A stretch of DNA of 64,000 bases from an uncultured Candidatus Binatia bacterium (GCA_964291295.2 OZ219754.1:3424001-3488000); one strand, 5' to 3'. Positions 37,646-41,229 are shown, numbered from the stretch's first letter. Made by a program: numbers and translations. Notes: generated from the sequence alone by a model not told the origin.

Positions 37646-37768
37646 GTCCCGCGCCCCGCCCCCGCGATTGCGGGGCAAGAGGGGCGCGGGACCGTTCTCA
37701 CCATGACCGCCCCTGGACGCTCGCTTGCGCGCCCGCCGTCCCCATGGAGACTGCGGCTCCGGCTGTCG
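37646..37768 (-). ncRNA. Structured 3' segment of the DGR template RNA (spacer after TR), ending in a long GC hairpin
   Basis: Inverted repeat gtcccgcgcccc (37646-57) / ggggcgcgggac (37681-92) with an inner stem; lies directly 3' of TR. Confidence 0.5.
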
Positions 37769-37892
37769 AGCGTGCGGGCAACTCGAAACCCGTTGTTGTT
37801 GTTACGGTTTCCGGTGTCGTTCCTGTTGCGGTTCGCGGACCGGAGGTTCCCCGGTTTGTTGTTCCAGGAACCGCCCCGCAAAACGCGGCGAC
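37769..37892 (-). repeat. DGR template repeat (TR), 124 bp
   Basis: Gap-free match to 39494-39617; 11 AAC codons; reads RRVLRGGSWNNKPGNLRSANRNRNDTGNRNNNNGFRVART. Confidence 0.95.
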
Positions 37893-39016
37893 AGGGGGAC
37901 GGTCAGGCTCCCGGGACGGCCGAACCAGCCGTCCCGGAAGATCGCCTGGCGAAGCCGCCAGGAATGAGCGTGCCTGGCATGTGCGACCCATGCCCCGATC
38001 CGCCGGTCTATCTCCTCCCTCGTAACGGTTCCGGCCCGCCATCGGGACCGCAAGCCCCGCAAACGGTTGCGGAAGCGGTGGACATTCTCTTCCGGCAGCA
38101 TCCTCCGTCCACCGGGAAACAGCACCAGCCCCAGAAACGTTGCCTGCGCCGCCGTCGGCGCAATCCATGTCTTGCGCGGATGCAGCCGCAGCCGCCGACC
38201 CTCCAGGAACAATGCAATACGGTTCCGCCATTCCGCCAGTTTCTCCGGGTCGTCATCGAACAGGACGAAGTCGTCCGCATAGCGCAAATAGCCCTTGGCC
38301 CGCAACGCCTCCTTGCAGAAGTGGTCCAGCCGGTCGAGATAGACGTTTGCGAAGAACTGGCTGGTCAGGTTTCCGATCGGCAGGCCGCGCCGGCGTGCGA
38401 ACGGCGCGAACAGGTCGTCGCCCGGATAGTGCAGATTGACCGGCTCCTGCGGGTTGGAGGCATCGACGATCCGGTCCGCAAGCGCGAGGGTGCGACCGCA
38501 GGCGATCCGGCGCCGGAGGTCCTGCTTGAGGATGGCGTGGTCGATGGCCGGGAAATAGCGGTAGATGTCGCATCGGAGCACATGCCCGAAGCGGTCCCGG
38601 AACGACTCGTAGCGGGCTATGGCCCGGTGGGTGCCCTTCTCCTTGCGGTTGGCGTAGCTGTCGTGGATGAAGCCCCGCTCGAAGAGGGGTTCGGCGACGG
38701 CGCAGAAGGCATGATGCACCACCCGGTCCCGGAAGGGCGCGGCGGAGACGATCCGATGCTTGGGATCGAACATCTCGATAGTCTTGTACCGGCCTGGCCG
38801 ATAACTTCCGCCGCGCAGTTCCCGTTCGAGCCGCAGAACCTCCTTCTCGAGGTTGGCGAGGAAGGCGGCCGCGCCCGGCTTCGAGCGCTTGCCCCGCGCC
38901 GCCCTCAGCGCCGCGGCGTGCAGGGCGGAGAAGGAGGCGATCTCATTGAACGGGATCTGTTCCCCCCCTCGCGCGATGCGCCTTGGTCCAGGCTCCGATG
39001 CGCCGCCCCGTGTCAT
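37802..39016 (-). CDS. DGR reverse transcriptase (start uncertain)
   Basis: APFRDRVVHH, SYANR..KGTH, CDIYRYFPAIDH, GLPIGNLTSQ (DGR signature), YLRYADD and FLG. Confidence 0.93.
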   Translation of the reverse strand: MTRGGASEPGPRRIARGGEQIPFNEIASFSALHAAALRAARGKRSKPGAAAFLANLEKEVLRLERELRGGSYRPGRYKTIEMFDPKHRIVSAAPFRDRVVHHAFCAVAEPLFERGFIHDSYANRKEKGTHRAIARYESFRDRFGHVLRCDIYRYFPAIDHAILKQDLRRRIACGRTLALADRIVDASNPQEPVNLHYPGDDLFAPFARRRGLPIGNLTSQFFANVYLDRLDHFCKEALRAKGYLRYADDFVLFDDDPEKLAEWRNRIALFLEGRRLRLHPRKTWIAPTAAQATFLGLVLFPGGRRMLPEENVHRFRNRLRGLRSRWRAGTVTREEIDRRIGAWVAHARHAHSWRLRQAIFRDGWFGRPGSLTVPLSPRFAGRFLEQQTGEPPVREPQQERHRKP

Positions 39017-39365
39017 CGATACACCGGGCCGCATGTTCGTAGCGGCGCCGGTCGAGATAGCCCAGGTCCCGGGCCGCACGGCACAGGAAACGCAGCTTTT
39101 CGAGACCGAGGTTCGCGCGCGCCAGATGGCCTGCCCGGCTGCGCGTGTATGTGGCCTCGACCAAGCTTTCCAGCACGTCCAGGGCCACGCCCTGCATACG
39201 GTCCCCCAGCAGAAACTTCTGGCTTCTCGGGAAGCGCTCCAGAACCGGAACCAGCCACAGTACGAAACGGTAATGGGCTTCCAGCGCCGGCCCGGTCTCC
39301 CGCGCGCCATCCCCCTTCCGAGGGCCCGCCGGCCTCTCGCCCGTTCCATCCGGATTCGTCGTCAC
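38943..39365 (-). CDS. avd: DGR accessory variability determinant Avd
   Basis: 140 aa helical protein with ERFPRSQKFLLGDRM, LEKLRF and GRRIGAW, between the target and RT. Confidence 0.88.
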   Translation of the reverse strand: MTTNPDGTGERPAGPRKGDGARETGPALEAHYRFVLWLVPVLERFPRSQKFLLGDRMQGVALDVLESLVEATYTRSRAGHLARANLGLEKLRFLCRAARDLGYLDRRRYEHAARCIDDTGRRIGAWTKAHRARGGTDPVQ

Positions 39366-39437
39366 GGCTCAAGCGAGTGCCTTCGCAAACCCGACAGGAC
39401 CCGCCTCCGGATACGAAAGCCGGGAACCCCAAAAAGC

Positions 39438-39460
39438 GTCCGGGGGCTACGCCCCCGGAC
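39438..39460 (-). promoter_or_regulatory. DGR target-recognition DNA hairpin downstream of VR/IMH
   Basis: Perfect 10-bp stem GTCCGGGGGC-GTA-GCCCCCGGAC, 23 nt after the target stop. Confidence 0.8.
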
Positions 39461-39483
39461 CCCCGAGGTAAGGAGGTAAAGAC

Positions 39484-41229
39484 TCAAGGGGCAAGCGTCC
39501 GGGCAACTCGAAACCCGATGTCGTCGTCACGGTCTCCGGCGCCGTTCTTGATGCGGATCGCGGACCGGAGGTACCCCGGAGAGTTGAACCAGGAACCGCC
39601 CCGCAACACGCGGCGACCGCGGCGACTGCAATCGCCGCCGCTCGTCCAGGCGCTTCCATCCGATGGCGCTCCCGCATAGTCGCCATGCCAGCAGTCCTCC
39701 ACCCACTCCCACACATTCCCATGCATGTCGTGCAGGCCGAAACCGTTCGCCGAAAAGGAACCAACCGGCGCCGTTTGCTTGTTACCCCAGCGACTGCCGC
39801 AGTCATGGCAGTTAGCACGGCCCTGACCGATCGAATCACCCCAGTGGTAGCGGCTCCATGTCCCCGCGCGCGCCGCATATTCCCACTCCGCCTCCGTCAG
39901 CAGGCGGTAGCGCTGACCGGTCTTCTCCGACAGCCAACGAACGTACGCCTGTGCATCCTTCCAGTTGACGCACACGACCGGGTCGCGATCCGTCTGCCGG
40001 AACCCGGGATTGTCCCAGCAGGAATTGCGCATGGCGTGGCCGGTAGCTTCGACGAACTTCCCGAACTCGCCGCGCGTCACCTCGTATTTGCCCACCGCAA
40101 AGGACTCCGCTATCGTCACCCGGCGCTGCGGGCCTTCGTCCCTGTCGCGTCCCTTTTCCGAAGCCGGCGAGCCCATGGTGAAAGAACCCGCCGGAACGAC
40201 CACCATCTCCGGGCATTCCGGGCAATCGTGGAACTCCTTTCCCGGAGGGAAAAGGCTCGCTACTGTCTTGCCTCCAGGTCCCTTGATCGAGGCGTCCGCA
40301 CCACCTTTCATCAGCAAGTCGATTATCTCGTCATGCCCGTGCACCGCCGCCATGAACAGCGCCGTCGCCCCGTCCGCCAAGCGTATGTCGGGATCCGCGC
40401 CGGCCTCCAGCAGATGCGGAACCAGCAGCGTGTAACCCTTGTCCACCGCGAGCATCAGGGGCGTCCAGCCGCGGGCGTCCCGGACGTTGACGTCCGCTCC
40501 CGTCGCCAGCGCCGCCTTCAGCCCGTCGACATCGCCCGCATTCACCAGCCGGTGCAGGTCGACGGGAGGTGGGGCGGGCCTGCGCTCTGCCGGGGCTTCG
40601 GTGACATTCCGGCCCCCGGCTGCGGTGCGCATCGCGCGCAGGGCCCCCGGGGTCAACATGTCGCCCGGCGGCATGCCCGTGTCCCGCAGGAACGCCGCAT
40701 AGGCCCGTCCGGTCTGCGGACCCCAGTGCCCGTCGGGCGGTCCGGGCCTGTAGCCGAGCGCGGCCAGGAGCGCCTGCGCCTCCCGGACCGCCCGTGGCGG
40801 CGGCCCGGCGGGAGATTCCGCAGCCGGAGCGTCCCCGGTGGACGGGCGGCTGGCGGTCGGCGCGCCCCGGCTCCGCCAAGCCCGCGCGAGCTTGCGCGCC
40901 TCGGCCCGCTCCCCGGCCGTCATGTCCTCCGCCAGCGCGTCGCGTTCCGCCGCCGCCTCAACACTGCCGAGACCCGCAGCGAGGTTCAGCCACTTGTGCG
41001 CCTCGACATAGTCCTGGGGAACGCCGAGACCCTTCACATGGGCCCGGCCCAGCGCCAGCATGGCGCGCGCGTCGCCCGTCTCCGCCGCCGCTCCCCATTG
41101 CGCCAGCGCCTCGGCGGTTCGGCCCGCATCCCACGCCGTCTGTCCCGCCTCGAAATCCGCCCGCGCGGCCGCGCCGCACGACAATATCGCCGCCAGGCAG
41201 CAGACGGCCAAGACTGCGTTCCGATACAT
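39484..41229 (-). CDS. DGR target protein: signal peptide, Sel1 repeat, PG-binding-like domain, ankyrin repeats, FGE-sulfatase/CLec domain (581 aa)
   Basis: GLGVPQDYVEAHKWLNLAA; AQALLAALGYRPGPPDG.WG..T; GWTPLMLA and GATALFMAA; CPEMVVVPAGSFTMGS, RLLTEAEWEYAAR, GLHDMHGNVWEW, RGGSW and GFRVAR. Confidence 0.9.
   Translation of the reverse strand: MYRNAVLAVCCLAAILSCGAAARADFEAGQTAWDAGRTAEALAQWGAAAETGDARAMLALGRAHVKGLGVPQDYVEAHKWLNLAAGLGSVEAAAERDALAEDMTAGERAEARKLARAWRSRGAPTASRPSTGDAPAAESPAGPPPRAVREAQALLAALGYRPGPPDGHWGPQTGRAYAAFLRDTGMPPGDMLTPGALRAMRTAAGGRNVTEAPAERRPAPPPVDLHRLVNAGDVDGLKAALATGADVNVRDARGWTPLMLAVDKGYTLLVPHLLEAGADPDIRLADGATALFMAAVHGHDEIIDLLMKGGADASIKGPGGKTVASLFPPGKEFHDCPECPEMVVVPAGSFTMGSPASEKGRDRDEGPQRRVTIAESFAVGKYEVTRGEFGKFVEATGHAMRNSCWDNPGFRQTDRDPVVCVNWKDAQAYVRWLSEKTGQRYRLLTEAEWEYAARAGTWSRYHWGDSIGQGRANCHDCGSRWGNKQTAPVGSFSANGFGLHDMHGNVWEWVEDCWHGDYAGAPSDGSAWTSGGDCSRRGRRVLRGGSWFNSPGYLRSAIRIKNGAGDRDDDIGFRVARTLAP
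39494..39617 (-). repeat. DGR variable repeat (VR)
   Basis: 3' end of the target gene; 15 of 18 mismatches to TR are at TR adenines. Confidence 0.95.

Follow-up and report, generated by a model that had tools for sequence, protein, structure and literature searches.

The diversity-generating retroelement (DGR) of Bordetella phage BPP-1, arranged mtd-avd-TR-Sp-brt, transfers a template repeat (TR) with adenine-specific changes into a variable repeat (VR) that ends the C-type-lectin-fold gene mtd, and it encodes a reverse transcriptase (RT), bRT, together with the accessory protein Avd. Residues R74 and I181 of bRT promote adenine mutagenesis (PMC7826257), and a hairpin/cruciform after the VR is needed for efficient homing (PMC3240598). 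Cryo-EM of the BPP-1 DGR RNA has described an Avd-binding stem-loop, a TR:Sp template:primer duplex that ends in the priming adenosine, a short linker, an avd:Sp "cPRT Stop" duplex, a single-stranded "thumb ring" and an RT-binding stem-loop; the same report lists putative counterparts of the Avd-binding stem-loop and of the stop duplex for 207 of 278 DGRs and cites a recent survey with about 31,000 DGRs (10.1101/2023.10.23.563531). FGE-sulfatase targets with appended kinase and TIR/NTPase domains have been described for DGRs (PMC5758913), and for the DGR-linked FGE ("FGS") domains of NTPase/effector proteins a role as hypermutating sensors of invaders has been proposed (Kaur et al., eLife 2021, PMC8195603). 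Here, a 64,000-nt stretch of DNA from an uncultured Candidatus Binatia bacterium (GCA_964291295.2 OZ219754.1:3424001-3488000; hereafter the window, whose positions are used as coordinates throughout) is analysed. It carries on its minus strand, with all parts in the same orientation, what is very probably a chromosomal DGR of the avd-RT-TR (B2) layout, by which the last 41 codons of the gene for a secreted FGE-sulfatase/C-type-lectin-fold protein have been rewritten.

The window element shares with the BPP-1 DGR an Avd, a bRT-like RT, adenine-specific transfer, a VR ending a C-type-lectin-fold gene and a GC-rich hairpin after the VR. Its RNA elements also follow the BPP-1 order, namely TR-end/primer helix, hairpin, linker A, long-range stop duplex, single-stranded stretch and terminal stem-loop. 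It differs in that its TR and 3' RNA come after the RT gene and overlap the RT frame, whereas the BPP-1 TR lies between avd and RT, and in that the upstream strand of the stop duplex is in the RT coding sequence instead of in avd. Moreover, its target is of the FGE-sulfatase type rather than Mtd, its hairpin follows the VR at a distance of 33 nt that includes a conserved TTTACCTC tandem, the ends of its TR and VR differ at one base only, and it is located on a chromosome, phage relatives being distant (at most 39% identical). The avd-RT-TR order is that of the B2 class of Wu et al. 2018 (PMC5758913). The Treponema denticola variable protein TvpA (2y3c) matches the FGE domain of the window target (E 3.2e-13), but this domain is much closer to PvdO (5hha, E 4.3e-68), and the Treponema DGR is described with an HRDC accessory gene in architecture C (PMC5758913), whereas the window has Avd. 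Similar to the DGR-linked FGS sensors of PMC8195603, relatives of the window cassette diversify FGE domains fused to TIR and nSTAND1, to a caspase or to a Ser/Thr kinase; unlike the STAND-NTPase/effector systems described there, the window target has no NTPase or effector domain. The window element is an ordinary DGR of a published architecture and target class, and it adds little as a DGR: known examples number in the tens of thousands, its B2 order has been published, and the flanking RNA elements have already been reported to be conserved.

The divergence between TR and VR is adenine-specific. An earlier note on this DNA, made from the sequence alone, had described a complete DGR with the signature of mutagenic retrohoming, and this description is borne out. 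The two repeats align without gaps over 124 nt at a constant offset of 1725, and a repeat search returned them as a 129-nt family with 84% identity. On the coding strand, 15 of the 31 TR adenines are changed in the VR (A>T 8, A>G 6, A>C 1), versus 3 of 93 non-A positions (Fisher exact p = 2.0e-8), so the bias reported earlier holds on realignment. Codon positions 1-2 take 14 of the 15 adenine changes and 13 residues are changed. DGR templates are AAY-rich, which keeps stops from arising, and here only one TR codon is able to become a stop, and if all 31 adenines were mutable the TR could encode about 10^16.5 protein variants. The TR and VR peptides had been given exactly, and that of the VR is free of stops. 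As noted earlier, two of the non-A mismatches are synonymous and one turns AGG into AAG; the former are T>G (VR 39607) and C>G (VR 39499), both at third codon positions, and the latter is G>A (39548). The C>G, which had been described as an edge mismatch, is not noise: a TR pyrimidine faces a VR purine at the same place, 6 bases from the end of homology, in 49 of 59 family TR/VR pairs, and this is the only non-A difference that the family shares.

One such RT, one Avd, one TR and one VR are present in the genome (3.70 Mb in 3 contigs, 99% complete). The search for remote VRs that the earlier note had proposed returned this single VR: BLAST with the TR across the genome gave none, its 16 further matches all scoring at most 28.3 bits, and a genome search with a degenerate 22-mer found only TR and VR at 0 mismatches and 8 matches at 3 mismatches versus 2 in the control.

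The target gene begins, by reading, 23 nt past the stop of the upstream gene and has its own stop codon at 39484-39486, and the VR forms the 3' end of its FGE-sulfatase domain. A Sec-type signal peptide, from MYRNAVLAVCCLAAILSCGAAARA, was predicted by eye at the N-terminus. No NTPase, effector or enzymatic domain was found in the target, which carries only the signal peptide, Sel1, PG_binding_1 and ankyrin repeats. The target can be read as a protein that is secreted, perhaps tethered to peptidoglycan, and that bears a changeable ligand-binding tip on a scaffold of repeats; its variable surface, with up to about 10^16 sequences, would give a periplasmic or surface protein changeable ligand specificity.

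The proteins encoded beside the target are those of a DGR. Avd scores 98.6 bits against the NCBIfam model DivGenRetAVD (NF033474; cut-off 80), and profile searches and translation confirm both Avd and an RT with IGNLTSQ and YADD, as noted earlier. The SQ motif ([I/L]GxxxSQ) is diagnostic of DGR RTs. The best PDB match of the RT is BPP-1 bRT (8ub7, E 2.3e-41), versus E 4e-14 for the best group II RT; the bRT alignment reaches only residue 354 of the 405-residue query. In this alignment, read by eye, the window RT keeps the residues matching bRT K29, R74, I181, G182 and Q187 as well as the YxDD aspartates. The RT open reading frame (ORF) shares 74 nt with avd and extends 91 nt into the TR. In 41 of 54 loci the RT frame has no stop anywhere in the TR; in 5, the window among them, it ends within the TR, and in 8 it ends short of it. 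The overlap with the TR is therefore usual in the family and probably incidental.

The same arrangement recurs in related genomes. Of 40 such genomes drawn, five gave an RT match (E up to 1e-20), and four of the five belong to the 24 congeners in the draw. The cassette is present in congener loci of genomes G010, G006 and G014 with an RT 72-78% identical to that of the window and TR/VR changes of 19/30 adenines vs 3/91 other positions, 19/30 vs 4/91 and 17/30 vs 11/90, respectively; all four congener TR/VR pairs show the adenine bias. A scan of one genome per species gave 75 further loci. From 52 of the 77 loci examined, a script retrieved 57 TR/VR pairs in which TR adenines account for at least 75% of the mismatches, the remaining 25 loci being largely truncated contigs, decayed copies or below-threshold pairs such as that of locus L019. 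The order target (FGE, VR)-avd-RT-TR is found wherever related loci hold enough DNA. The window combines a DGR-type RT, an adenine-specific TR/VR pair, a VR at the 3' end of a C-type-lectin-fold target, Avd and a cis-acting RNA.

This RNA was aligned from the 3' end of the TR through 165 nt downstream for the window and 52 loci. RNAalifold predicted 32 pairs, with compensatory changes in 28. In the structure listed in Table 1, 93.2% of 1685 cells are paired, versus 39-49% when the 3' partners are slid by 1-3 columns, and 281 cells are changed on both sides, versus 60-87 when slid; none of 500 shuffles reached any observed pairing measure. For the long-range duplex the values are 96.0% of 520 cells vs 28-57%, with 90 double-change cells vs 10-18. 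In the terminal stem-loop (helices 5-7), 13 of 13 pairs show changes on both sides, and conservation among relatives ends there. All helices are intact in the window. A search of 36000-42000 against Rfam gave only a sub-threshold ASpks match (E 0.25) and no curated family on the DGR RNA. The hairpin of the earlier note is present, although it is in fact two, one after the VR and one 3' of the TR. As putative stem-loops and stop duplexes of this kind have been reported in 207 of 278 DGRs (10.1101/2023.10.23.563531), conservation of these elements is already known; the addition here is covariation support for the RNA layout in a B2 element.

Conserved signals also follow the VR. The consensus after 59 family VRs is a stop codon, a tandem TTTACCTC TTTACCTC, a G run and a GC-rich hairpin with a 3-4-nt loop, often followed by a T run. 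For 45 of the 59, the first 70 nt downstream include a TTACCTC-like motif, and for 46 a perfect stem of 6 bp or more occurs in the first 110 nt, 25 of these with a T-rich tail. On the RNA, the TTTACCTC tandem resembles the 3' end of 16S rRNA, and tandems like it are kept across loci labelled as different phyla. By sequence, the window has putative DGR target-site elements, a VR 3' end that differs from the TR (IMH/IMH*-like, one base) and a downstream hairpin; the latter may serve both as the DGR target hairpin/cruciform and as an intrinsic terminator for the target gene.

These elements suggest a mechanism on the BPP-1 model. A transcript from about 37905 to 37650 would fold with two pairings, the 3' end of the TR with a segment 55 nt downstream, and the stretch that borders the TR on its upstream side with the downstream segment that comes next. 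RT-Avd would bind the hairpin and the terminal stem-loop, and cDNA would be primed in cis at the conserved A 37714, which we infer only by analogy to be a candidate priming nucleotide, or at a neighbour. The TR would be copied with misincorporation opposite A, with synthesis starting at about 37776 and halting before 37895 at the upstream duplex, and the cDNA would replace the VR, with the identical G/C-rich 3' ends and the hairpin beyond them as guides. C37774 would be left uncopied because it lies inside the primer-like helix, and the TR/VR discriminator could therefore persist as a mark of donor and recipient, a detail that agrees well with the model.

Table 1 Features of the DGR in the window, with coordinates in window positions
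Feature	Coordinates	Strand	Remarks
Target (variable-protein) gene	39484..41229	-	581 aa from ATG 41229; mechanical ORF up to GTG 41331
Sel1 in target	40963-41070	-	Pfam E 2.1e-07
PG_binding_1 in target	40669-40791	-	Pfam E 4.7e-06
Ankyrin repeats in target	40285-40557	-	Pfam Ank_2 E 4e-14
FGE-sulfatase/C-type-lectin-fold domain in target	39499-40218	-	Pfam E 1.3e-64
VR	39494..39617	-	Last 41 codons of the target gene
Pyrimidine-rich tandem motif CTTTACCTCCTTACCTC	39465..39481	-	Between target stop codon and hairpin
GC-rich hairpin and T run	39431..39460	-	Stem 10 bp, loop 3 nt (39438-39460); T run 39431-39435; terminator-like scan
avd (accessory variability determinant)	38943..39365	-	140 aa; Pfam bAvd E 9.4e-18
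RT ORF	37802..39016	-	404 aa from ATG 39016; further in-frame ATG 39034; IGNLTSQ, YADD
Stop-like duplex, 5' strand	37895..37905	-	11 bases just upstream of TR; pairs with 37704-37713; analogue of BPP-1 "cPRT Stop"
TR	37769..37892	-	31 adenines, 11 AAC codons; repeat alignment
TR/VR discriminator	C 37774 (TR) vs G 39499 (VR)	-	Pyrimidine/purine, one base
TR-end/primer-like helix	37768-37775 with 37715-37722	-	Holds discriminator C 37774; RNAalifold and pair counts; analogue of BPP-1 TR:Sp template:primer duplex
Covarying hairpin inside primer-like helix	37727-37763	-	Analogue of BPP-1 Avd-binding stem-loop (region 37715..37775)
Conserved adenosine	37714	-	Nearly invariant column A81, at least 90% of rows; between primer-like helix and stop-like duplex
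Stop-like duplex, 3' strand, and conserved single-stranded TCATGGTGAG	37697..37713	-	Duplex 37704-37713; TCATGGTGAG 37697-37706
Terminal stem-loop with interior loops	37650..37688	-	Hairpin 37646-37690 of the earlier note; analogue of BPP-1 Sp RT-binding stem-loop

Two other origins of this arrangement were weighed. The TR and VR might be an ordinary partial duplication of the conserved C-terminus of an FGE domain, with the adenine bias due to chance or to a mutational skew unrelated to the RT, for which the conservation of the GFRVAR-coding end of FGE domains and the weak genomic look-alikes at 3 mismatches could be cited. This is extremely improbable and effectively refuted by the bias itself (p = 2e-8), by the A-rich copy being non-coding in that frame and lying directly after a DGR-type RT and Avd, by the repetition of arrangement and bias in 52 of 77 related loci, and by the covarying structured RNA, which surrounds the A-rich copy only. 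There is likewise hardly any chance that the RT is that of a group II intron or a retron with coincidental repeats nearby. The best NCBIfam RT model is indeed group_II_RT_mat (TIGR04416) at 119.6 bits, with the retron model NF038233 at 41.6 bits and no DGR-RT model returned, but these scores are far under the cut-offs of 300 and 235, and bRT is the closest solved relative by 27 orders of magnitude in E-value. In addition, Avd adjoins the RT, and no Rfam group II intron or retron RNA was found in 36000-42000 at E up to 1. The grouping of the RT with group II introns or retrons, which the earlier note had named among the outcomes that would speak against a DGR, is effectively refuted: by PDB E-values and NCBIfam cut-offs the RT sides with DGR RTs.

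Several observations nevertheless weigh against the reading of a chromosomal DGR that has rewritten its target. Avd has no sequence match in the PDB at E up to 0.01, a promoter scan found no sigma-70-like promoter in 37300-41600, the priming nucleotide and the RNA-protein contacts are drawn by analogy, and two non-A differences between TR and VR are left unexplained by the discriminator. A further point is the start of the RT. In 28 of 29 relatives an ATG or GTG is kept 6-9 codons before the conserved N-terminus (at -8 in 24 of the 28; in the 29th, L019, the ATG was missed by the script and is visible by eye), whereas the window has GCG. A G7 run (38962-38968) and, 5 bases on, an in-frame ATC (38954-38956) replace the start, and the nearest in-frame ATGs (39016 and 39034) are within avd, 22 and 28 codons further upstream, and by reading lack an obvious ribosome-binding site. 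Translation of the RT may use these ATGs, the Shine-Dalgarno (SD)-like G run with a near-cognate start, or a +1 shift, or may not occur. Moreover, a decayed congener copy in genome G005 is still adenine-biased (16/29 A vs 4/96 non-A).

A fossil DGR, in which the VR was once diversified and is now frozen, RT translation having been lost with the start codon and the genes decaying as in congeners, is a possibility, if a rather unlikely one. It would account for the GCG, on which the contigs of two runs agree, so that an assembly slip is not involved, and for the two unexplained non-A differences; it also has parallels in the G005 RT with its stops and in a second G014 copy that lacks a TR. The biased G005 copy, with its broken RT, shows that the signature outlives activity. 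On the other side, the RT is open over 404 codons with all catalytic motifs kept, the avd and target frames are intact, every RNA helix is preserved, and upstream in-frame ATGs as well as an SD-like G run before the in-frame ATC are available. Furthermore, non-A, non-discriminator differences between TR and VR amount to just 2 of 92 sites, against roughly 16-22% between congeners; since congeners differ by about 13-22% in flanking DNA, the last rewriting of the VR post-dates the split from the sampled congeners. The chances that the element is still firing are about even. The statement of the earlier note that it was active recently is therefore unsupported, given the same bias beside the broken RT of G005, the absence of the family start codon from the window RT and a population test with contigs only.

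That population test compared the stretch with Logan contigs from X1 (share 1.00), a run that may come from the source sample, and from a second run, X2 (share 0.76). The X1 contigs are identical to the window stretch, and the X2 contigs of this organism over the RT and most of the target differ at 0-3 positions. In X2, 39116-40192 is covered solely by a divergent contig with 74 differences, probably from another DGR, and this contig gap is uninformative on VR variation. The G7 run is the same in the contigs of both runs, with no indel, and an assembly error there was rejected. A -1 frameshift at G7 fusing Avd to the RT was also rejected by reading, as the RT frame is +1 relative to avd.

The wider relationships of the cassette were examined with a quick IQ-TREE phylogeny of the RT comprising 56 rows, the window and 55 of the 77 loci; 22 loci were left out as their best high-scoring segment pair was shorter than 300 residues or contained a stop. 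The window RT falls in a clade of 20 rows (SH-aLRT 99) nested among Pseudomonadota rows. Clade members are labelled Pseudomonadota (7), Acidobacteriota (4), Spirochaetota (2) and Gemmatimonadota, Nitrospirota and Binatota (1 each), and the congener copies are split within it instead of forming one group. Because the phylum labels are those of the submitters, five clade genomes were checked directly. Their RTs are 72-76% identical to that of the window (two of the five matches with one stop), and their ribosomal protein L9 is only 35-50% identical. An SdhB-like protein, searched in four of the five, is 61%, 32% and 31% identical and was not found in the fourth, versus 92% in congener G010. In the checked genomes, the related loci are all on multi-megabase chromosomes (complete metagenome-assembled genomes). 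On sequence grounds, the simplest reading is horizontal transfer of the cassette across deep lineages, and for DGRs as a class such transfer has been amply documented (PMC5758913). GC content, alike in the DGR (0.681) and the window (0.674), carries no sign of transfer. As to a phage or plasmid origin, no RT above 39% identity was found in 50,697 phage records and none above 51% among the plasmid records searched.

Some relatives depart from the arrangement in the window. Loci L024 (NZ_OZ244149.1), L039, L062 and L033 have two or three VRs per TR, the three VRs of L024 (2979-3103, 4469-4594 and 10092-10216) all being A-biased; such relatives have multiple predicted targets, some of them downstream of the TR. 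The decayed G005 copy (L020, G005:C1:352000-364000) has an RT with two TGA and one TAG codons and an internal deletion, and a TR-VR distance of only 1042 nt. The second G014 copy (L021, G014:C1:3512000-3524000) keeps the target, avd and RT residues 14-149.

The regions before the FGE/VR domain vary among relatives. In 10 family targets scanned, nothing recognisable was found in four; the others carry Peptidase_C14 with PG_binding_1 (congener G010), Sel1 with PG_binding_1 and ankyrin repeats as in the window (congener G006), a protein kinase (1), a kinase with PG_binding_1 (1), TIR with nSTAND1 (1) or fn3 (1). Since the FGE/VR domain follows varied N-terminal modules, the mobile unit seems to be the sensor domain together with its diversifying machinery, joined to different front ends. 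The words "ankyrin", "Sel1" and "peptidoglycan" are absent from the main text of PMC5758913, the check covering that text and not the supplementary tables in which elements are listed. A superficial literature check for DGRs with sponge or ankyrin found no paper on such a DGR.

A broader proposal, which we consider tentative and doubtful as a whole, is that the cassette lineage (FGE-VR, avd, RT, TR and 3' RNA, and TTTACCTC/hairpin) is a portable hypervariable sensor exchanged among at least six phyla that possibly share a habitat. Recipients may weld the cassette to a front end of their own, with caspase, kinase or TIR-STAND serving signalling or suicide. In this genus, a secreted Sel1/PG-binding/ankyrin scaffold with its eukaryote-like repeats could face a host or its phages, and the altered translation of the window RT could set a very low, tunable rate of mutagenesis. 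For some relatives, a sponge-symbiont habitat is hinted at by record names only.

The covariation-backed map of a DGR RNA in the avd-RT-TR layout allows the BPP-1 cis-priming model to be tested in a very different arrangement. One cassette lineage that crosses phylum boundaries with varied front ends bears on DGR-diversified lectin domains as bacterial "adaptive" receptors. In addition, the dead or half-dead congener copies and the missing RT start of the window warn that an A-biased TR/VR pair is no evidence of present activity.

A transketolase gene and rplI flank the 9.3-kb stretch (about 36625-45970) in which the cassette lies. Congener G010 is syntenic up to 36624, and similarity to congeners resumes at about 45940-46008 in the rplI region; G010 has about 19 kb of other DNA at this site and its own DGR 0.9 Mb away. 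In four of five congener-level loci, the DGR is adjoined by a protein of about 320 aa with a hydrophobic N-terminus and no known family, encoded at 42840-43811 (-) in the window, 8036-8959 in L018, 9371-10219 in L019 and 9303-9815 in L021, upstream of the target or downstream of the TR. This protein was absent from the other-phylum loci, and an Atlas search with the window copy gave scores all below 0.9. A mechanical ORF joins it to a DUF4351 fragment (43812-44645). The ORF at 44236-44637 is reminiscent of an integrase arm-binding N-terminus but has no Pfam match. The gene directly upstream of the target (41252-42865, -; 537 aa) has no Pfam family, a Cys-rich C-terminus and five 45-bp tandem repeats (41725-41994) encoding EARRQAE-like units, and it was not found beside congener DGRs.

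On the other side of the cassette, a 66-aa ORF (36961-37161, -) matches the first 52 of 90 positions of HU/IHF (Bac_DNA_binding) and is apparently a truncated gene at the edge of the variable stretch; it is not counted in the element because it has no counterpart beside congener DGRs. A palindromic repeat at 37385-37447 (CCGCATCCTGCC...GGCAGGATGCGG) has two more copies in the genome (97% and 89%) and a high summed contig depth in both runs, with a one-base insertion variant in 4-5 contigs. The rplI ORF encodes 203 aa, and none of 26 congeners shows DNA similarity to its last 50 or so codons (45836-45997). The 110 nt at 45707-45817 are repeated elsewhere in the genome with 88% identity.

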